A stretch of DNA of 23,357 nucleotides. Source: a virus. Taxonomy: Duplodnaviria; Heunggongvirae; Uroviricota; Caudoviricetes. Positions 1 through 11,316 of the stretch are shown piece by piece. The position numbers and the translations under genes are program-made. The stretch lies in IMG/VR virus record IMGVR_UViG_2545824717_000010; one strand, written 5' to 3'. Each line of letters opens with the position of its first letter. Positions within the stretch are counted from its first letter, which is position 1. The notes under the pieces are model-generated. The model was given only the letters and a program-made list of their open reading frames with translations, made no database searches and had not been told where the DNA came from.

Positions 1-1002
1 TTACCCTCTATTGTCAAAAGGGTTCAATTCAACAGCAGCCTCTAAATGACCTGGAGCAAAATGCGCATAACGCATAGTCATTTTTATATCGCTATGCCCC
101 AGTATTTTTTGCAACACAAGAATATTTCCGCCCCGCATCATAAAATGACTGGCAAACGTGTGACGTAGCACATGAGTTAATTGCCCATCAGGAAGCTCGA
201 TCTTCGCTCTCTTAATTGCAGCGTCAAAAGCCTCATAACATGGTGAAAATAGCGCTCCTCGTTTTTTAGGAAGCATAGCCTGCAATTGAGGTGAAATCGG
301 TACAGTGCGGTTCTTCTTTCCTTTAGTTTTAACAAATGTGATTCGACCGGGCAGTACTTGAGATTGCTTTAATCCTTCTGCTTCACTCCACCGAGCACCC
401 GTCGCAAGCCCAATACGGACAACAACCCCCAAATCTTTATTCCGTGACTCATCACACGCAATCAGAAGGCGCTCAATCTCATCTACATACAGAAACGCCA
501 GTTCCTTTTCTTCCTCACGAAACTTGCGAATACCAGTCAGGGGGTTTTCACCAGACCACTCCCCAAGGCGCTTCAGTTCGGCAAAAACAGCATGTAGATA
601 TGACTGCTCGCGATTAACGGTTGCTTCACTAAGTTTTTTCTTCCCCTTGGGATTCCATTCTCCAGATAGCCTTCTTTCCCGATAAGTAGCAAACATATTT
701 TTGTCAAACTGAGAAGCAAATGGATCTCCCAGCCTGGAACAAATCGCCTCAAGTTTGACTTTGCGCTCTGCACCAGAGGACAAGGTTTTACCGTACATCT
801 CAAACCAACGAGCAATCAACTCAGAAAGACGAGGACCAGAACCATCTTGAAACTCGTCTCCAACTCTACTATTCATTAAACGGCGCTCATAAGAGAGCGC
901 CTCACTTTTTGTCGCAAACTGTTTACGAATGCGTTTTCCCGATGCCCCGTAGGGATAACATTCGCAAAGCCATTTACCTGATGGAATCTTACGAACCGAC
1001 AT
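1..1002 (-). CDS. int: Tyrosine integrase, P2 family
   Basis: 333 aa; C-terminal recombinase motifs (LATGARWSEA, HVLRHTFASHFMMRGGNILVLQKILGH, MTMRYAHF with catalytic Tyr); strong resemblance to P2 Int as recalled. Stop codon sits at window positions 1..3. Confidence 0.9.
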   Translation of the reverse strand: MSVRKIPSGKWLCECYPYGASGKRIRKQFATKSEALSYERRLMNSRVGDEFQDGSGPRLSELIARWFEMYGKTLSSGAERKVKLEAICSRLGDPFASQFDKNMFATYRERRLSGEWNPKGKKKLSEATVNREQSYLHAVFAELKRLGEWSGENPLTGIRKFREEEKELAFLYVDEIERLLIACDESRNKDLGVVVRIGLATGARWSEAEGLKQSQVLPGRITFVKTKGKKNRTVPISPQLQAMLPKKRGALFSPCYEAFDAAIKRAKIELPDGQLTHVLRHTFASHFMMRGGNILVLQKILGHSDIKMTMRYAHFAPGHLEAAVELNPFDNRG

Positions 1003-1007
1003 TTTAG

Positions 1008-1355
1008 TTACTTATCACATAAATCAAATGCAGCCTTAGTGACATCCCCCAGACTCTTTTTTAACCCTGGGGCGGCATCATTATCTAGCCAAAATGGATT
1101 ATTGTTATCTAACGGTAACGCACCAAATGTTTTACCTTTTATTCGAGCCAAACCTGTAAGTGCATATAACTTATTATCGTCAAAATTCATCACATAAGGA
1201 TTACCATCAAGACACTGTAATTGAACCTCATCAGTATTAAATGGCCATACCCCATTGAAACTCTCACGTTCAATAGTTTTAAAAGGCATTGCGACGGCGG
1301 AAAAAGAAAACATAGATAAAAAAGTAACTAATAGTTGAACCTTTTTTACTTTCAT
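1008..1355 (-). CDS. Small secreted/periplasmic protein, unknown function (cargo)
   Basis: 115 aa; N-terminal signal peptide (MKVKKVQLLVTFLSMFSFSAVA, AxA-type cleavage site), two Cys (near N- and C-terminus of mature part); AT-rich; 5 bp upstream of int start. From memory it may resemble YebY-like small periplasmic proteins, unverified. Confidence 0.6.
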   Translation of the reverse strand: MKVKKVQLLVTFLSMFSFSAVAMPFKTIERESFNGVWPFNTDEVQLQCLDGNPYVMNFDDNKLYALTGLARIKGKTFGALPLDNNNPFWLDNDAAPGLKKSLGDVTKAAFDLCDK

Positions 1356-1384
1356 ATCATTACCTCAATTTAGCTCAAGTAAGA

Positions 1385-2035
1385 TTACAAATTAAAAAAC
1401 GCCCTAGAAATGAAACCGCCTACCAAACCCCCTACGCAGATAAAGAATATTATTTCTTTTGGATAAAGTCGGATTAATTCTGAAGCACGAAGTCGGACTT
1501 CTGGTAAGGTCGAACTCTCTGTGTGGCTTGATGCCGATTGTTGCTCTAACCACGACAATGCAGACTGTAACTGAGAACGAGTAAGATCGTTTAAACGTCC
1601 TGTACCGAAATTGATATGGCAATACCGCAGAAGTTTTTGTCGAAGTCCACAGTCTTCACTGTTACGTAGTAATAAACTTACAAGAGCCTTACAGGCATCA
1701 TGATCTTTACATCGCTCAAGCATTGCATGCAGAAAACTCTCCGCTGTTTTATATTGATTTACTGTCATATCATCAATACCAGCTACACCAATCTCCGCAT
1801 GTACTTTTTGCCAAATAATAAACGCTTCAGTATTGCTAGCTTCTGCAATAGCAGCAACCAAGCTATTTAGCTCCTTACGCTGAACCTTAAGCAAAGGGCG
1901 ATCGTCATCATCATTATTCGAAGGGATTGCGATATTGACGGTCTGAGAACCATCATATCGCTCTATCTGAATATTCTTTTCGTGAAAATCACGCCCAGCA
2001 ACGCGATTGTTTGAACCGTTTGAGTTGACGGCCAT
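1385..2035 (-). CDS. Tail-anchored membrane protein, unknown function (cargo)
   Basis: 216 aa; soluble N-terminal domain with acidic DDDD stretch; single C-terminal hydrophobic segment (IIFFICVGGLVGGFISRAFF); AT-rich; 15 bp downstream of the HTH regulator gene. Confidence 0.6.
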   Translation of the reverse strand: MAVNSNGSNNRVAGRDFHEKNIQIERYDGSQTVNIAIPSNNDDDDRPLLKVQRKELNSLVAAIAEASNTEAFIIWQKVHAEIGVAGIDDMTVNQYKTAESFLHAMLERCKDHDACKALVSLLLRNSEDCGLRQKLLRYCHINFGTGRLNDLTRSQLQSALSWLEQQSASSHTESSTLPEVRLRASELIRLYPKEIIFFICVGGLVGGFISRAFFNL

Positions 2036-2050
2036 GTCACCTCCCTACTA

Positions 2051-2455
2051 TCACCTACCCTTAGTTTCGTTATAGTCACGACCAGCGATACGGTTATTAC
2101 CACCAGAAATATTTAACTCACGTCCTGATGGCTGAGTTTCCTTTTCACTGATCGCACCTTTTAAAGCCCCAATCACCGCGTTTTTCACATCTAACGAAGC
2201 TGCTCGAAAGCGAGTAATCAACTCCTGCTCATCATCGTTATAAGTTTCAGGTGAGTGAATTCCCAACACAACATACTGAACATCAAGGCCAAAACGAGAC
2301 AGCGCTGCCAAATACGCAGCATCAGGAAAGCTATCTCCTTTCTCATATCTAAGCTGAGTTAGCTTTTTGACTCCACCAATGTCGCTCATGGCAACTTGAC
2401 TAAGTCCCAATCTTTCCCTTTCCTCACGCAACCGCTGACCAATATCATTTTTCAT
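2051..2455 (-). CDS. HTH (XRE-type) transcriptional regulator, putative prophage repressor
   Basis: 134 aa; N-terminal helix-turn-helix pattern (QRLREERERLGLSQVAMSDIGGVKKLTQLRYEKG); divergent from the early operon; first gene of an operon ending in int, as P2 C-int. Confidence 0.7.
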   Translation of the reverse strand: MKNDIGQRLREERERLGLSQVAMSDIGGVKKLTQLRYEKGDSFPDAAYLAALSRFGLDVQYVVLGIHSPETYNDDEQELITRFRAASLDVKNAVIGALKGAISEKETQPSGRELNISGGNNRIAGRDYNETKGR

Positions 2456-2464
2456 ACAAAAACC

Positions 2465-2493
2465 TTGACAGGTATCTTTTTTGATACCAAAAT
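2465..2493 (+). promoter_or_regulatory. Candidate early promoter (-35 TTGACA, 17-bp spacer, -10 CAAAAT) with operator palindrome GGTATC-T6-GATACC in the spacer
   Basis: TTGACA at 2465..2470; perfect 6-bp inverted repeat at 2471..2488; lies in the divergent intergenic region between the repressor-like gene and the early operon. Confidence 0.4.
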
Positions 2494-2530
2494 GATTTCA
2501 CGAGCTATTAGATGATCACAATATACCACT

Positions 2531-2737
2531 ATGAAACAAGTTCTTCACGATACCAGATCACGCATTCCGCGTAACACCGCCACAGGTCCAAGACTGGCAC
2601 TTCGGCTGTCCCTCGAGGAGCGAGCCGTCATCGATGAAATGGCAGCTAAAGAACAACGCTCATCCTCTAACATGGCGCGCATGATCTTCCTTCGCGGCCT
2701 AGAGCTAACCCAGAAAGAACAAAACAAATCTTCCTGA
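2531..2737 (+). CDS. Small early regulator, possible ribbon-helix-helix fold (Cro/Cox-like role)
   Basis: 68 aa; predicted beta-strand (LALRLSL) followed by two helices (EERAVIDEMAAKEQ, NMARMIFLRGLE); first ORF of the rightward early operon; no obvious Shine-Dalgarno. Confidence 0.45.
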   Translation: MKQVLHDTRSRIPRNTATGPRLALRLSLEERAVIDEMAAKEQRSSSNMARMIFLRGLELTQKEQNKSS

Positions 2738-2753
2738 TCAGGAGGCTAGTGGG

Positions 2754-2957
2754 ATGTCAGGTATAACCATCAATATCAATGTGAATGCCCCCTATGTATC
2801 CCTGCAGAAATATGCAGAGATAACAGGTATCCCTCTTAATACATGCAAAAAGATGTTGGCTGACGGTCGAATTATTATCCGCCCCAAACGCGCCAAAATG
2901 GAAAAGCCTGAAGTAAACCTTGTGGCGATGTTAAAAGACGCTTTGGCTAACAGCTAA
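2754..2957 (+). CDS. Small HTH DNA-binding protein, Cox/excisionase-like
   Basis: 67 aa; strong RBS AGGAGG upstream; segment YVSLQKYAEITGIPLNTCKKMLADGRI resembles the HTH region of P2 Cox-type proteins as recalled. Confidence 0.5.
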   Translation: MSGITININVNAPYVSLQKYAEITGIPLNTCKKMLADGRIIIRPKRAKMEKPEVNLVAMLKDALANS

Positions 2958-2978
2958 AACAATGAACAGAGCACCATC

Positions 2979-3329
2979 ATGAAAAAAAACGCTAATAATC
3001 CATACTCCAAATTTCGTAATGGCGTAGAACGCCATGTACACCACGTCGCTACCAGTGCATCACGTAGTAACAGTCGCTATAACCTGAACGAGACGCACGC
3101 AACACCGGATGGCCACGCTGTAAAACAAATCGGCGAGCATGCCTGGCTGATTGAGAAAGCTGGAATCGTGGTCCACAAATGCCCACGCAATCCGTTTACC
3201 GGAAACCGCATTTTTGCATTGAACTGCGGCGACAATCACTTCGGGCAGGATTTCACATTATACGAAGCACTTCGCACGGTTGATCGTCTGCTTCGCGGGC
3301 AAAGTTTTATTAAACAGGCTGATTTATAA
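2979..3329 (+). CDS. Hypothetical early protein
   Basis: 116 aa ORF in early operon; His/Cys-rich (HVHHV, HKCP, NCGDNH), possible metal-binding. Confidence 0.5.
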   Translation: MKKNANNPYSKFRNGVERHVHHVATSASRSNSRYNLNETHATPDGHAVKQIGEHAWLIEKAGIVVHKCPRNPFTGNRIFALNCGDNHFGQDFTLYEALRTVDRLLRGQSFIKQADL

Positions 3330-3339
3330 CAGGTGCTTT

Positions 3340-3618
3340 ATGACCAAAGAGCATGCACAAGGTGTATTTATCCGTTTTATTGATTTTCGCGGTGAACTGT
3401 TATTACGCGCATCAGCCATTGACGGAGTTGTTCCATCCGAAAAAAACGTAGCTACTTACGTTTATCTGAACGGTACGCGCCTGACTGTGGAGCTTCCGTA
3501 CCAGACCGTACGAGAAATCATTAGCGAAGCTGAAAAGGCACGTCAGGTTAATGGCGATGAACCCTATATCGAAATTATTTGTATGGATTCAGAAGCTGAA
3601 ATTCAGAAAGCAGATTAA
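3340..3618 (+). CDS. Hypothetical early protein
   Basis: In-frame ATG at 3340 avoids overlap with the previous gene (the ORF track start at 3280 overlaps it); 92 aa. Confidence 0.45.
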   Translation: MTKEHAQGVFIRFIDFRGELLLRASAIDGVVPSEKNVATYVYLNGTRLTVELPYQTVREIISEAEKARQVNGDEPYIEIICMDSEAEIQKAD

Positions 3619-5744: not shown

Positions 5745-8570
5745 ATGACGACAGAGTACATCAGGGACTGGCAACAACCGCGCCACGCAGTAGGACGTGA
5801 AGGAACGGAGATCCCCGCACCTGAATCCGCACTTTCCTCCTGGCTGGATGCCTACCGGGCAGAGAACGAGCGCCGCCAGGAAATGGCTGATGCGGCGTTC
5901 TCCGCCACGCCGCTGGGCAACCTGATTAATAAAAGCCTGGACGCACAGGAAAAACAGGACAAAACAATCACACTGGCAGGAGACGCCAGAAAACAGGCAC
6001 GCGGCGCGGTAGATGAGGCCATGGCCTCACTGCGCCTGCTGCCGTCCTATCTGCGCGATCCGCTTATTCGCCACCTCTCCTTCCTGCGCAAAAAACAGGA
6101 AGCCGATCGTCAGAAAGGAAAAAACGCCAGGCAGGCAGAACGCTATGCGCGTGGGACCCTGCGCAAAATATTCGAACGTCTGGAGCGCACCGATCACCGC
6201 TGGCTGACATCGGGTTATCGCTCCCTTGCCGGACGTGACCGCCTGGACGATTTGCTTTCCCTGCCGCAACTCAACAAACACCAGATACAGACGCTGGCCA
6301 CCATGACGGCGGCGATGTTCAGCAGCACCTTCGAAAAACTCTGCGATGGTTTTGGCGCGACTGATGGCGAGCTGACCATGGATGTAACGCTGAAGGTGTA
6401 TCAGATGCTGGCCCGCATGGCATTACATCTGCACACCATGCCGCCACATTATGACGCACTGACAACAGACAAAGACCGGAGGAACGAACCAGACACGGAG
6501 CTGCTGCCGGGCGCAATTCTTCGCCTGACCTGTGCGGAATGGTGGAAGCGCAAACTGTGGCTTTTACGTTGCGAGTGGCGGGAAGAACAACTCCGCGCCG
6601 CCTGTCTGGTTTCCAGAAAAACATCGCCCTATCTGAGCCAGGACGCGTTAAGCGAGTTTCGCGCACAGCGCGAGAAAACACGCGATTTCCTGAAAAGTTT
6701 CATGCTGGAAAACGAAGACGGGTTCACGATTGATCTCGAGACAGTGTATTACGCGGGAGTAAGTAACCCGGTTCACCGTAAGGCAGAAATGATGGCCACC
6801 ATGAAGGGGCTGGAACTTCTGGCCGAAGCCCGTGGCGACAAAGCGGTGTTTCTGACTGTCACCTGCCCGTCAAAATACCACGCCACAACAGAGAACGGTC
6901 ATCCGAATCCCAAATGGAACGGGGCCACCATGCGCGACTCCAGCGATTATCTGGTTAACACGTTTTTTGCGGCGGTCCGCAAAAAACTGAACCGCGACGG
7001 CCTGCGCTGGTATGGCATCCGCACGGTGGAGCCTCACCATGACGGCACCGTGCACTGGCATATGATGGTCTTTGCTCATCCGGAAGAAATCGACAGCATC
7101 GTGGCCATCACCCGCGATATTGCCATTCAGGAAGACCGCCACGAGCTGGGCAATGATATTACTCCGCGCTTTAAGGTGGAGTATGTCGACGGCTCAAAAG
7201 GCACACCAACCAGCTATATCGCGACCTACATCGGAAAAAACCTGGACAGCCGCGCCGTCGATGGCATCGACCCGAAAACGGGCAAGCCACGCGTTGACCA
7301 CGAAACCGGAAAATCAATGGCCGAGAGCGTGGAGCGCGCCATCGGCTGGGCGCGCCTTCACCGGGTCCGTCAGTTCCAGTTCTTTGGCATCCCCTCCCGT
7401 CAGGTGTGGCGTGAACTGCGCCGCCTTGCCAGCCAGATGGCACGCAATCCGGAAGGCCCGCAACGGCTGAAAGATGATGCAATGGATGCGGTACTCGCTG
7501 CCGCCGATGCCGGGTGTTTTGCCTCCTACATTGAAAAACAGGGTGGCGTGCTTGTTCCACGCAAGGACTACCTGATTCGCACCGCCTACGACCTCGCAGA
7601 TGAGCTGAACGATTACGGCGAACAGAGCGTACAGATTTACGGGATCTGGTCACCACTCATCGGGGAATCCTCCCGTGTGTGCACGCATCCGGATAACTGG
7701 AAGTTGGTAAGACGTAAACCAGAACCAGAAGACAACGCCCACGAAAATGGTTTTGACCTTCAGGGCGGCCCTGCCGCCCCTTGGACTCGTGGCAATAACT
7801 GTCCCCGTGTACAGGAAACAGGCAACAGCGGGACAGAACAGTCGAAAGAACGGCCAGCACCGTGGCCGCAGCTTCCTGACGGCGTTGAAGTGAACGAATG
7901 GATGCGCTCACTGAAACGGCACGAACGCCGGGCGCTGATGCGTTCGCTTCGTGACAAACAGGCAAAAAACAGCAGTGATGAAATGCAGAGCTGGACACAG
8001 AGCCGCAAACAGCAGCGGCCTTTGCCTGATAACCACGAATTACTCGCTAAAGAATGGCGGGAATCTGCCGAATCTCTCGGCCTGCATATCGGTGAACAGC
8101 AGATGCAGCACCTGTTACGGGGAGGCAGCCTGTACGTTGACGGCAGCATCATTGCACCGCAGGGATTTGAAATTGTACGCAAACCGGATACCCGCCCGGC
8201 CAGCCGAATCACGCAGCTCTGGCAGCGCCTGAGCCGTAATCACGGCGTAAGCAGCACAGAGATCCGTCATAACCCGGTCGCCAGCTATCTGGCACAGCTG
8301 GGGGCATCAGACCCCGAAGCCGCCGCACGTCTGGCATCCACACTTCAGCAGGACCAGAACACCATGAAAACCCCCGTTACCGTGCTTTCTGACATGCTGC
8401 GCGCCATCCGTGACGCAGAGCACGCACAAAGAATCAATGAAACCACTGAACGCGCCCGCCGCAAGGCTACTTTGCTCCAAAAGAGAGGCAAACAGCACTT
8501 TAGTAATCAAAATGATGATGAGAAAAAACAATTACAAAGTTGGATATGCCTTTTCCATCATGAGGGATGA
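5745..8570 (+). CDS. A: Replication initiation endonuclease (rolling-circle, HUH class), P2 gpA homolog with extended C-terminus
   Basis: 941 aa; HUH metal motif VHWHMMVF (about 7050..7080); tyrosine motif YIATYIGKN (about 7210..7236); position before the cargo locus as in P2. Longer than P2 A as recalled (about 760 aa). Confidence 0.85.
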   Translation: MTTEYIRDWQQPRHAVGREGTEIPAPESALSSWLDAYRAENERRQEMADAAFSATPLGNLINKSLDAQEKQDKTITLAGDARKQARGAVDEAMASLRLLPSYLRDPLIRHLSFLRKKQEADRQKGKNARQAERYARGTLRKIFERLERTDHRWLTSGYRSLAGRDRLDDLLSLPQLNKHQIQTLATMTAAMFSSTFEKLCDGFGATDGELTMDVTLKVYQMLARMALHLHTMPPHYDALTTDKDRRNEPDTELLPGAILRLTCAEWWKRKLWLLRCEWREEQLRAACLVSRKTSPYLSQDALSEFRAQREKTRDFLKSFMLENEDGFTIDLETVYYAGVSNPVHRKAEMMATMKGLELLAEARGDKAVFLTVTCPSKYHATTENGHPNPKWNGATMRDSSDYLVNTFFAAVRKKLNRDGLRWYGIRTVEPHHDGTVHWHMMVFAHPEEIDSIVAITRDIAIQEDRHELGNDITPRFKVEYVDGSKGTPTSYIATYIGKNLDSRAVDGIDPKTGKPRVDHETGKSMAESVERAIGWARLHRVRQFQFFGIPSRQVWRELRRLASQMARNPEGPQRLKDDAMDAVLAAADAGCFASYIEKQGGVLVPRKDYLIRTAYDLADELNDYGEQSVQIYGIWSPLIGESSRVCTHPDNWKLVRRKPEPEDNAHENGFDLQGGPAAPWTRGNNCPRVQETGNSGTEQSKERPAPWPQLPDGVEVNEWMRSLKRHERRALMRSLRDKQAKNSSDEMQSWTQSRKQQRPLPDNHELLAKEWRESAESLGLHIGEQQMQHLLRGGSLYVDGSIIAPQGFEIVRKPDTRPASRITQLWQRLSRNHGVSSTEIRHNPVASYLAQLGASDPEAAARLASTLQQDQNTMKTPVTVLSDMLRAIRDAEHAQRINETTERARRKATLLQKRGKQHFSNQNDDEKKQLQSWICLFHHEG

Positions 8571-8755: not shown

Positions 8756-9601
8756 ATGACAAAGCCTTCTCATTTTAGAACCCCTCTTCGTTATCCGGGA
8801 GGTAAGGCAAAATTCTTGCCACATATTGAACAAATACTCCGCAACAATGATCTCATTGGTGGATGTTATGCTGAACCTTATGCAGGTGGAGCCGGTGTAG
8901 CATTAGGTTTGCTCCTTAACGGTCTTGTTGAAAATATCTTCATAAATGATATTGATCCTGCCCTTTATTCTTTTTGGTTTGCAGTGGTTAATCATAACGA
9001 TCTGTTATGTGAAATGATTGATGAAGTTCCTGTGACTATTGAAAATTGGCATACTCAAAAGGAGATACTCCTAAACAATGATAAATATAGTATGCTTGAA
9101 GTCGCATTATCTACTTTCTTTTTAAATAGAACAAACCGTTCAGGAATACTTAAGGCTGGCGTTATTGGAGGGAAAGAACAAAAAGGACCATGGAAGTTAG
9201 ATGCAAGATTCAACAAAAAAGAGTTAATTAAAAGGATTGAACTAATTGGTGCATATAAGGAGAAAATTTACGTATCGAATTTTGATGCTGTAGATTTTCT
9301 GCTACACCAAAAAGCATTGCTACCCAAAAATAGTCTAATATATCTTGATCCACCTTATTATGTTAAAGGAGCAGAGTTATATAGAAATTTTTATAAACAT
9401 GATGATCATGTAAAAATCGCTAATACACTACGGGAAATTCAACTACCTTGGGTTGTGTCTTATGACAATGTGCCTGAAATAAAAAGCATATATCATGAAT
9501 TCAATATGACTGATTATACGCTTAATTATACTGCACAAGATAAGAAAAAAGGTCTAGAAATTATCATTTATAATCATGGTATAAAAATCCCTGACATTTA
9601 A
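8756..9601 (+). CDS. N6-adenine DNA methyltransferase, D12/Dam family (alpha class)
   Basis: 281 aa; N-terminal RYPGGK motif; SAM-binding motif I EPYAGGAGV (about 8870..8896); catalytic motif IV DPPY (9347..9358); markedly AT-rich versus flanks. Target sequence cannot be inferred. Confidence 0.85.
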   Translation: MTKPSHFRTPLRYPGGKAKFLPHIEQILRNNDLIGGCYAEPYAGGAGVALGLLLNGLVENIFINDIDPALYSFWFAVVNHNDLLCEMIDEVPVTIENWHTQKEILLNNDKYSMLEVALSTFFLNRTNRSGILKAGVIGGKEQKGPWKLDARFNKKELIKRIELIGAYKEKIYVSNFDAVDFLLHQKALLPKNSLIYLDPPYYVKGAELYRNFYKHDDHVKIANTLREIQLPWVVSYDNVPEIKSIYHEFNMTDYTLNYTAQDKKKGLEIIIYNHGIKIPDI

Positions 9602-9618
9602 ATTTAAGGATGATATAG

Positions 9619-11316
9619 ATGATTAAAGAAATTAGTTTTAAAAAATTTAAGAAACTGATAGATATTGACTTCTCATTCAATGAAGACATCAATATAATAT
9701 CAGGAACCAATGGGACATGTAAGACAACATTGCTTCATTTAATTAGCAATGGTTTCCAAATGCCACCATCTCGATCACAAAATTATTCAAATAGTAATTG
9801 TGTTAGAGTTATAAAATCTATAAACAAAATAGCCAACCCCAAAATGGAAGCAATTGTTAGGGAATCAAAAAATTACACCGATCCGGCAGAGGGAACAAAA
9901 GGTGTGTTATTTTCTATTAACTATTTGGATCATAGCACACTAGACTTCAGAAAGCACAACTCAAAAAATCCAGACGAAGCGCAACGGTATGCTATCAAAC
10001 CAGTATACCCACGCGGAAAAGAAAAACAATCACTTCCAGCTAAACCAGTTTTATATCTTGGATTATCGCGACTATTCCCAATTGGTGAAACTAAAGACGA
10101 CGCCCTTACAAAAATTCCGTTAAACCTACCAGAAGAGTATGTTGGTTATATATCGAAAATATATAATGAACTTTTGGGAATTAATATTATAAATATAGAA
10201 TCAAACAATATCGGTGATTTTAAAGCTGGCCCATTATTTGATACCGATAACCCAGCAATTGATTCTAATACCATATCATCCGGGGAAGACAATATATTCA
10301 TTATAATCAAGGCATTAGTTAGCCTTAGGTATTATTTTGAATCACTTATTCAATCCACTGATCAAAAAGAAAGCATTCTGTTAATAGATGAATTTGATGC
10401 CACTTTACATCCTTCTTTACAGATAAGATTATTAGATAAAATTTATCAATACGCAAAAGATTATAAGATTCAAGTATTTTTCACAACGCACAGTCTGACA
10501 TTGCTAGAGTATGCTTTTCATAAAAAATACCATGTTGTCTATCTAATTAACAATATTACAAAGGCTCTGCTTTTGGATAATCCTGATATATTAAAAATAA
10601 CAATGTATCTGAAAACACAAACAAAGGATGAGATATACACAAGGAACAAGATACCAGTTTTCACGGAAGATGAAGAAGCTCGCTTTTTATTTAATGAAAT
10701 ACTTGGTTATTGGATAAGCAAATATCCAAATTTTGCTATAGTTAGTAATTCATTTCACTTAATTGATTGTTTCATTGGTGCAGACAATTTAAAAACTATT
10801 TTTAATGATTCTCATCTTAAGGAAACCTCGTTAAAATCAATTTGTATTCTTGATGGAGATCACAGCCCTGAGGATCAGAGAGGAATTATATCACTGCCGG
10901 GTGAAAAAGCTCCAGAACAATTGATATTTGAGCATTGTGAGCACCTTTATAATACCGACGACTCTTCCTTCTGGGAAAATCAGGATATAATTAACAATGG
11001 TTTTTCGAAAGAGTTATACTTACTCAAGATACGTCCTCAATTACAATCAATTGAAACTGAAATTCAGAAAAGAAAAGACAACCATGAGTCTACATCCGGT
11101 TTAAGAAGAAGATTAAATAAGAAAATATTCAATCAGCATATTGAATTCTTTAGAATGATTACAAGAAACTGGTTAGACAAACCAGAAAATCAGAAATCTC
11201 TCCAGTATTTTTACAATGGATTACGATCCTTATTCTACCGGGTTACACCAACAAACGGCATTGACAGAAAAATTTGGGATTTTGACTATAACAAAATCAT
11301 TAAAGAGGATAAATAA
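9619..11316 (+). CDS. ABC-type ATPase fused to a TOPRIM-like nuclease domain (OLD/PARIS-like architecture)
   Basis: 565 aa; Walker A GTNGTCKTT (about 9703..9729); Walker B LLIDEFD (about 10381..10400); TTHS motif; C-terminal region with conserved Glu (VFTEDEEA, about 10654..10680) and DxD (ILDGDH, about 10846..10860) consistent with TOPRIM; starts 17 bp after the MTase stop; very AT-rich. Confidence 0.75.
   Translation: MIKEISFKKFKKLIDIDFSFNEDINIISGTNGTCKTTLLHLISNGFQMPPSRSQNYSNSNCVRVIKSINKIANPKMEAIVRESKNYTDPAEGTKGVLFSINYLDHSTLDFRKHNSKNPDEAQRYAIKPVYPRGKEKQSLPAKPVLYLGLSRLFPIGETKDDALTKIPLNLPEEYVGYISKIYNELLGINIINIESNNIGDFKAGPLFDTDNPAIDSNTISSGEDNIFIIIKALVSLRYYFESLIQSTDQKESILLIDEFDATLHPSLQIRLLDKIYQYAKDYKIQVFFTTHSLTLLEYAFHKKYHVVYLINNITKALLLDNPDILKITMYLKTQTKDEIYTRNKIPVFTEDEEARFLFNEILGYWISKYPNFAIVSNSFHLIDCFIGADNLKTIFNDSHLKETSLKSICILDGDHSPEDQRGIISLPGEKAPEQLIFEHCEHLYNTDDSSFWENQDIINNGFSKELYLLKIRPQLQSIETEIQKRKDNHESTSGLRRRLNKKIFNQHIEFFRMITRNWLDKPENQKSLQYFYNGLRSLFYRVTPTNGIDRKIWDFDYNKIIKEDK

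Follow-up and report, generated by a model that had tools for sequence, protein, structure and literature searches.

Organization of the lysogeny operon

The window analysed in this study is the whole stretch of 23,357 nucleotides (nt) of IMG/VR virus record IMGVR_UViG_2545824717_000010, which is a P2-type prophage of the P88 group (Xuanwuvirus, Peduoviridae). Its left end carries four genes on the minus strand, and the present work deals with the two that lie between the immunity repressor and the integrase, here called ORF216 and ORF115. The repressor gene (2051..2455) encodes an XRE-type helix-turn-helix (HTH) protein of 134 amino acids (aa), which matched HTH_31, HTH_19 and HTH_3 as well as the repressor families phrog_8, phrog_4 and phrog_3. 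It is followed by ORF216 (1385..2035), which encodes a tail-anchored Flk_N-domain protein and was a conserved partner of the repressor, and by ORF115 (1008..1355), which encodes a secreted 115-aa protein of the DUF2511/YebY family and occupied a variable cargo slot. The last gene of the leftward operon is int (1..1002), encoding a tyrosine integrase of 333 aa (Pfam Int_N, 5e-32; Phage_integrase, 2.5e-22; phrog_1, 1.4e-76).

The gaps between the genes were 15 nt (repressor/ORF216), 29 nt (ORF216/ORF115) and 5 nt (ORF115/int), in agreement with the initial annotation, which had described four minus-strand reading frames separated by 5-29 nt. The two middle genes had also been described as AT-rich compared with int. 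The G+C content was 35.3% for ORF115 (26.7% at third codon positions), 41.3% for ORF216, 44.0% for the repressor gene and 45.1% for int, in a window of 49.6%. Both genes were thus below int, but strong AT-richness was limited to ORF115, and ORF216 was just 3-4 points below its neighbours. The minus strand from 2455 to 1 was checked for terminator-like sites and none was found, which is compatible with a single leftward transcript. We infer that the repressor gene, ORF216, ORF115 and int are co-transcribed. In P2, the repressor C and int share one transcript from Pc.

Pairing of the repressor with ORF216

AlphaFold2 placed the HTH domain of the repressor at aa 1-64, helices at aa 74-105 and a disordered tail at aa 105-134. 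In all of the 13 related loci compared, which covered 10 genera (E. coli, Klebsiella, Serratia, Rosenbergiella, Mixta, Izhakiella, Enterobacter, Kosakonia, Erwinia and Symbiopectobacterium), a gene for a Flk_N protein with a transmembrane (TM) segment begins 8-15 nt after the gene of a tailed XRE repressor. Furthermore, the pair was present in 48 of 49 distinct arrangements (96 loci) spanning Enterobacterales and beyond. Every intact arrangement was paired, and the sole unpaired one (L023) was a pseudogene. The gap between the two genes was 8-18 nt across the 49 arrangements, except in two remote pairs, where the genes overlapped or lay 32 nt apart.

The HTH domains of these repressors were of at least three types, 41-58% identical to that of the window, and the tail was conserved throughout. 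Past the HTH domain, the repressors had in common a helix, FRxAPLAVKAAALAALTAG, and a tail ending in ..INVSGxGNRVAGRDYNENKK. A natural control was provided by P0364, a repressor of the same HTH type in which both the helix and the tail are missing; no Flk_N gene is present in its P2-like prophage. In addition, fused forms were found. In phrog_17822 (P0255), on an inovirus-like contig, an HTH repressor is fused to a Flk_N-like domain. In phrog_10002 (P0154), a Flk_N-TM protein is fused to a periplasmic domain, which is 35% identical (E 3e-24) to a separate lipoprotein encoded just downstream of the pair in L026. The module of repressor and Flk_N-TM protein has apparently not been described so far.

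The repressor gene and ORF216 of the window lie in the same frame and are split at 2036-2053 by three stop codons in a row (TGA TAG TAG) and GGAGGTGAC. The two genes were in the same frame in 10 of the 13 related loci and in different frames in the other three. Read-through or fusion of the two was ruled out by the stop codons together with the differing frames.

A mirrored and co-varying peptide

The disordered end of the repressor was mirrored in the disordered start of ORF216. The peptide lies at aa 115-130 of the repressor (NISGGNNRIAGRDYNE; 2066..2113, minus strand), where it was kept with different HTH domains and co-varied with the partner N-terminus, and at aa 4-20 of ORF216 (NSNGSNNRVAGRDFHEK; 1976..2026, minus strand), where it was recognised from invariant residues, disorder and similarity to the tail. 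It reads NNRIAGRDYNE in the repressor tail and NNRVAGRDFHE in ORF216 (NISGGNNRIAGRDYNET and NSNGSNNRVAGRDFHEK, respectively). Among 31 ORF216 homologues, the residues S5, G7, N10, R11, D16 and E19 were invariant, and the consensus of the partner N-terminus was M.VNS.G..NR.AGRDF.EN.

The similarity of the repressor tail of the window to the N-terminus of ORF216 had a z of 9.6 against shuffles. Local alignments of tail and partner N-terminus reached z values of 5-12 over shuffles (0/1000) in eight of nine pairs. When the true pairing was tested in seven lineages, 2 of 5040 pairings scored as high, the true one included. About five motif classes were distinguished, namely NRIAGRDY, QFAGRDIVN, VGQxIAGN, NNVQIG and ASGxxAQAAG, and both peptides change together from one class to another. 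The repressor tail and partner N-terminus were, respectively, GGEFAARDIVNH and DGQFAGRDIVNN in L024, SGQFAGNQIINN and QGQFSSRDIINI in L026, QVFHGKVGQSIAGNV and QVFREDVGQAVAGDL in L112, QIFHGSVGQVIKGD and QSFHGDTGVVAGGD in L114, QVNITASGPRAQAAGRKIVN and RINVEASDGGQSAANDINN in L113, and GGSNNVQIGSV and DGNGNVQIGKV in Ralstonia phage YO077_2. Within the enterobacterial group, fine-scale co-variation of residues was not evident, and the co-variation was seen only between the deep motif classes.

AlphaFold2 called both peptides disordered, next to confident folded domains. The codons of the two peptides differ at synonymous sites; therefore, the similarity is kept at the protein level and is not that of a recent repeat. 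A recent DNA duplication as the source of the motif was rejected on the same ground, and no direct repeat was found.

The Ralstonia phage (L111, 2399-3935) showed a different arrangement. Its Flk_N-like protein has no membrane anchor, and the gene is convergent with that of the repressor. The gene after that of the repressor encodes a zinc-ribbon protein with one TM segment instead, and the mirrored peptide NNVQIG is still common to the repressor and the Flk_N-like protein.

Domain structure of ORF216 and its relation to Flk

ORF216 matched phrog_5825 at 7e-101. The precomputed Flk_N assignment (PF27202) was present on P0001, the representative of its 90%-identity cluster (98% identical to ORF216), and on nearly all of the homologues listed. 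Against the NCBIfam Flk model NF007987, ORF216 gave an E of 3.7e-15, with aa 35-166 aligned to positions 18-149 of 339, and a score of 56 bits, which fails the equivalog cut-off of 353 bits. The Flk_N domain occurs once in ORF216 and other proteins of 190-225 aa, and twice in proteins of the length of Flk (329-416 aa). Accordingly, ORF216 was rejected as Flk proper, because its score is far under the cut-off and it has a single domain. An exhaustive profile search covering 1.84 billion representatives yielded only 140 relatives.

AlphaFold2 predicted a disordered N-terminus (aa 1-41) and a helical Flk_N domain at aa 45-170 (1526..1903, minus strand), with a pLDDT (predicted local distance difference test) of 86-93. 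The single C-terminal anchor of the initial annotation was present at aa 194-216 (1388..1456, minus strand). It contains the one strongly hydrophobic stretch of the protein, IIFFICVGGLVGGFI (aa 195-209, Kyte-Doolittle 2.63), and corresponds to a helix at aa 192-215 in the AlphaFold2 model. Homologues end 0-7 residues past the anchor. ORF216 is nearly wholly cytoplasmic, with 0-7 residues beyond the membrane anchor. The envelope location earlier given to both proteins held in the sense that both are envelope-associated, but nearly all of ORF216 lies on the cytoplasmic side.

The first Flk_N sub-domain showed a likeness to peptide-binding helical bundles and Ant/ORF6C modules, and at the sequence level gave weak matches to ORF6C and Ant/Rha-type antirepressor families. 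The PDB sequence search with ORF216 gave no match, and the search of a viral fold library gave weak matches only (E of at least 0.015).

Under the action of Flk, the flagellar export gate stays in its early mode; Flk interacts with FlhA-C and, like ORF216, has a tail-anchored topology with one membrane segment (PMC13344023). Flk (Fluke/RflH), the inhibitor of the type III secretion switch of Salmonella and E. coli, thus has the Flk_N helical domain and the tail anchor in common with ORF216, and presumably also a logic by which a binder fixed to the membrane holds its cytoplasmic partner in a single state. In contrast, ORF216 has 216 aa (about 333 aa in Flk) and one Flk_N copy instead of two, and bears the N-terminal AGRD-type peptide, which Flk lacks. 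Moreover, it is encoded in a prophage immunity operon, also in Klebsiella. Klebsiella pneumoniae is normally non-flagellate.

The host Flk proteins P0164, P0166, P0168, P0183 and P0186 have two Flk_N copies and no AGRD-type peptide. The single-copy proteins of the phage type were more diverse and reached Ralstonia and metagenomic phages. Because of these two features, it may be that Flk descends from a gene of a phage immunity module.

ORF115 as a YebY-family protein

ORF115 scored 28.4 bits against Pfam PF10709 (DUF2511; cut-off 21), with aa 28-113 covering positions 2-87 of the 87 in the profile, and matched phrog_2950 at 8.7e-40. In the alignment with E. coli YebY (PDB 7n0j; phmmer E 0.0027), W37, C48 and C113 were in register. 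Judged by these matches, ORF115 is a predicted periplasmic protein of the DUF2511/YebY family. The signal peptide and the two cysteines noted earlier were both present. The signal peptide is of a typical Sec kind and comprises aa 1-22 (1290..1355, minus strand), MKVKKVQLLVTFLSMFSFSAVA followed by MP, with predicted cleavage between the two. It consists of the start MKVKK, a hydrophobic core with its maximum at aa 8-22 and an AxA-type site, AVA before MP, as read directly from the sequence. The protein has exactly two cysteines, C48 and C113, and they aligned with the disulfide pair of YebY.

In YebY, Cys48 and Cys113 form a disulfide in a periplasmic protein family, and in some Enterobacteriaceae homologues of yebY have been noted to be flanked by a recombinase on one side and a phage repressor on the other (PMC8689200). 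ORF115 resembles YebY (E. coli yobA-yebZ-yebY; PDB 7N0J) and MlbQ, a protein of lantibiotic self-resistance, in its DUF2511 score above threshold, Trp37, the Cys48-Cys113 pair and the Sec signal. It differs from YebY in that the similarity is remote, the gene is prophage-borne and AT-rich, and the copper-linked yobA-yebZ-yebY context is lacking, since its neighbours are int and ORF216. The PHROG families of ORF115 and ORF216 have no function assigned in PHROG, and neither protein matched a PADLOC defence model. A probable role of ORF115, suggested by the link to YebY and MlbQ, is the periplasmic binding of a ligand or peptide; the protein probably serves lysogenic conversion or exclusion. Superinfection exclusion, proposed initially, is a possibility for its function.

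A variable cargo slot next to int

In the 87 loci with a recognisable int, at least nine unrelated gene families occupied the stretch from the Flk_N gene to int. These included DUF2511, a BRCT-domain protein of 288-295 aa, phrog_3989, DUF8087 (phrog_17127), a polytopic membrane protein (phrog_3403), a VasI-like exported protein and a tail-anchored coiled-coil protein, among others. About half of the families in this third slot are exported or membrane proteins. In the window and in every relative checked, no other gene of the operon was as AT-rich as that in the third slot, and two of the slot families recur in a prophage without the Flk_N module. In L011, int was 95% identical to that of the window, the HTH protein 41% and the Flk_N protein 64%, and the third gene was unrelated; this pattern indicates that exchange occurs at the int boundary.

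The slot was hypervariable, with at least nine unrelated families in relatives, and ORF115 is on this account true cargo. This was in agreement with the earlier view that the repressor-int interval carries accessory genes. The further view that both genes are inserted cargo was borne out for ORF115 but not for ORF216, which accompanied its repressor class in 48 of 49 loci with a co-varying peptide. Likewise, ORF216 was found to be a conserved core gene of the phage lineage, and ORF115 was not. In E. coli, Serratia and Rosenbergiella, the divergence of the DUF2511 proteins (61-70% identity) paralleled that of the Flk_N proteins (62-65%); DUF2511 is therefore an old resident of that sub-lineage and not a recent insertion. 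To our knowledge, the published P2 defence hotspots do not include this cargo hotspot at int.

Two observations on other occupants were made. In the related P2-like prophage L158 (3357-4132), whose repressor has no tail, the genes between repressor and int encode a zinc-ribbon protein of 117 aa and a tail-anchored coiled-coil protein of 140 aa, and the same two families also fill the third slot of the Flk_N cassettes L096 and L076. The third-slot proteins of Klebsiella, Enterobacter and Kosakonia (L004, 5647-6513; L020, 4663-5538) have 288-295 aa and a BRCT domain as in NAD-dependent ligases, and one of them gave a weak match to the candidate defence model PDC-S48 (E 1.4e-8).

Switch region

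A perfect palindrome, GGTATC-N6-GATACC, was found at 2471-2488, in the spacer of a rightward promoter-like site (TTGACA-17-CAAAAT, 2465-2493) that lies upstream of the Arc-like and Cox-like genes. Both arms are changed in relatives (GGTACG..CGTACC in Serratia, GGTATT..AATACC in Kosakonia) and the palindrome is nevertheless retained, which would be expected if an operator follows the specificity of its repressor. It is likely to be the operator, to judge from these sites. On the minus strand, an extended -10 element, TGgTATATT (2520..2528), is a candidate for the leftward promoter of the lysogeny operon. It was found by direct reading and was invariant in four diverged lineages; it has no -35 hexamer. 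This layout fits that of a P2-type switch. The search of the window for LexA boxes gave a single match, which lies inside gene A and is at chance level, and SOS control was accordingly rejected.

A plus-strand reading frame of 68 aa at 2531-2737 matched phrog_3431, an Arc-like repressor family (E 1e-28), and is probably the real gene here. It is overlapped by a RefSeq-annotated reading frame of 45 aa on the minus strand (2545-2682).

Proposed role of the module and alternatives

The best explanation of the results, to which we assign a probability of roughly 55%, is a leftward operon of two layers, in which the repressor and ORF216 form an immunity module and are followed by a cargo slot filled here by ORF115. 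That ORF216 is a functional partner of the repressor rather than cargo is the firmer part and appears quite probable. As the constant companion of one repressor type, with a co-evolving peptide in common, it probably helps to control lysogeny. ORF216 would be a cytoplasmic Flk_N protein held to the inner face of the membrane by its C-terminal anchor, and the motif of about 16 residues in both disordered peptides would link the two proteins, either by direct pairing or by competition for the same docking site, which might lie on the Flk_N helical bundle. By tethering, sequestering or releasing the repressor at the membrane, ORF216 might adjust how much of it is active, which would make ORF216 part of the lysis-lysogeny switch, akin to host Flk holding FlhA-C in one state. 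For direct binding of ORF216 and the repressor through the peptides the odds are about even, and any particular direction of the effect on the repressor is doubtful. ORF115 would be Sec-exported, disulfide-bonded and made in the lysogen from the cargo slot.

Several points weigh against the two-layer operon as proposed. AlphaFold2 docked neither peptide onto a domain. Co-variation of the peptides would also be expected if the same third factor were bound by both of them. Tethering to the membrane does not apply in every case, because the Flk_N protein of the Ralstonia phage is anchorless and the genes there are convergent. In addition, ORF115 co-diverges with ORF216 in three to four lineages (61-70% vs 62-65% identity).

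The module may be compared with known systems. In the ImmR-ImmA-Int modules of ICEBs1 and Gram-positive phages, the repressor, a co-transcribed antirepressor that acts on it and the integrase are on one lysogeny transcript. The order is the same as here, with an XRE repressor, a dedicated partner and an integrase. ImmA is a soluble HEXXH metalloprotease that cleaves ImmR, whereas ORF216 is all-helical and membrane-anchored; it has no HEXXH motif and no peptidase family match in Pfam or NCBIfam, and no proteolysis is implied. The rexA and rexB genes of lambda are co-transcribed with the repressor cI in the lysogen, include one membrane protein and have reported roles in exclusion and in modulation of the switch. 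No sequence or fold relation to the present module was seen, RexB is polytopic, and we know of no mirrored peptide common to RexA/RexB and CI.

The components generally recognised in the lysogeny switches of P2-like phages are a small repressor, Cox and, in some of these phages, an antirepressor under SOS control. If the proposal is true, a repressor class that is always accompanied by a membrane-anchored partner, through a co-evolving peptide, would be a new kind of control point. The module is common (about 9% of complete E. coli genomes, EDL933 and Klebsiella pneumoniae), so direct testing is possible in standard strains. Moreover, the phage proteins show the Flk_N domain at work outside any flagellar context, while the mechanism of Flk is still being worked out, and the slot next to int is a place to seek new conversion or defence genes.

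Among the alternatives, the one that survives best is that each of the two genes is an independent piece of cargo, is expressed from the lysogeny promoter and serves superinfection exclusion at the envelope or another lysogenic conversion. Superinfection exclusion (sie) genes stand beside the repressor in other temperate phages, as with Ltp, Sie2009 and lambda rexAB. Both proteins are envelope-associated, the G+C content of both genes is below that of int, accessory genes occupy the repressor-int interval of other P2-like prophages too, and exported or membrane proteins make up about half of the families in the third slot. However, ORF216 is bound to one repressor class with which it has a co-evolving peptide in common, is missing where the tail is missing and exposes at most 7 residues outside the cytoplasm; fused HTH and Flk_N repressors exist, and neither protein has a PADLOC match. 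As an account of both genes this alternative is unlikely, and it applies mainly to ORF115.

A toxin-antitoxin or abortive-infection-like pair is less probable still. In such a pair, the repressor tail would neutralise a membrane-acting ORF216, and ORF216 would be set free to damage the membrane once the repressor was lost or titrated, through loss of the prophage or an incoming antirepressor. The layout resembles that of type II systems, with an XRE protein that has a disordered C-terminal tail and a partner within 8-15 nt, the HTH domain gave weak MqsA/HipB-type matches, and the partner is membrane-anchored. But no toxin or defence family matched in Pfam, NCBIfam or PADLOC, the Ralstonia homologue has no membrane segment, and the HTH protein sits at the position of a P2-type immunity repressor, over an operator in the early promoter. 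Furthermore, the large helical domain of ORF216 is soluble and homologous to Flk, a non-toxic host regulator (PMC13344023), and the only anchor of the protein is short and at its tail.

A bolder extension of the two-layer operon, comparably improbable, is a split relay across the envelope that couples the repressor to envelope events. A periplasmic protein (DUF2511 here, a lipoprotein or fused domain elsewhere) would signal via the tail-anchored Flk_N protein, which would hold or release the repressor via the mirrored peptide and so allow SOS-independent induction or control of immunity. Flk would then be a domesticated and duplicated descendant of the phage module, and Flk_N a general device for keeping a partner at the membrane. 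If the three proteins acted together, they would be like the ToxR/CadC-type one-component regulators, in which DNA-binding domain, anchor and periplasmic module are one chain. Here, in contrast, the chain is split over genes, the anchor is C-terminal with hardly any periplasmic part, and the DNA-binding domain is XRE and not OmpR-type. Fusions of HTH with Flk_N and of Flk_N-TM with a periplasmic domain exist, and a full fusion of the three parts was not seen.

Finally, that ORF216 mimics Flk and acts on the flagellar or locus of enterocyte effacement (LEE) type III export gate, altering motility or secretion of the lysogen, is very improbable: homology over 132 residues, the same tail-anchored topology, the interaction of Flk with FlhA-C and its block of the secretion switch (PMC13344023), and the label 'flagella biosynthesis regulator' given to homologues in some databases speak for it, but the score is far below the Flk cut-off with one Flk_N copy instead of two, the mirrored peptide and the strict repressor link are left unexplained, and the abundance of the module in Klebsiella pneumoniae (P0098, on 754 contigs) weakens it further.

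Distribution and other features of the window

Positions 1-3400 of the window were 100% identical to the chromosome of E. coli TW10598 and 96.9% identical to the record of phage 520873. At least 80% of this 3.4-kb stretch was present in 507 of 5426 complete E. coli genomes (about 9%). O157:H7 EDL933 was among the carriers, and its prophage adjoins yecA; we take it to be CP-933T. Among 50,697 phage-genome records searched, ORF115 and ORF216 occurred only in the prophage-derived 520873, both frameshifted. In that record (L001, NC_049344; 1039-3065), int is in two parts, and ORF115 and ORF216 are each in three pieces and unannotated. Because these three genes are broken there, the record is probably that of a decayed or mis-sequenced prophage.

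An AT-rich segment (31-39% GC) at 8756-11316, directly past the replication gene A (5745-8570), holds two genes. One encodes a D12 methyltransferase, which matched PD-Lambda-5_B (E 8e-122), and the other an AAA_15/OLD-like ATPase of 565 aa, which matched PtuA, GajA and AriA-type models. The two look like a defence pair in a known P2 hotspot.

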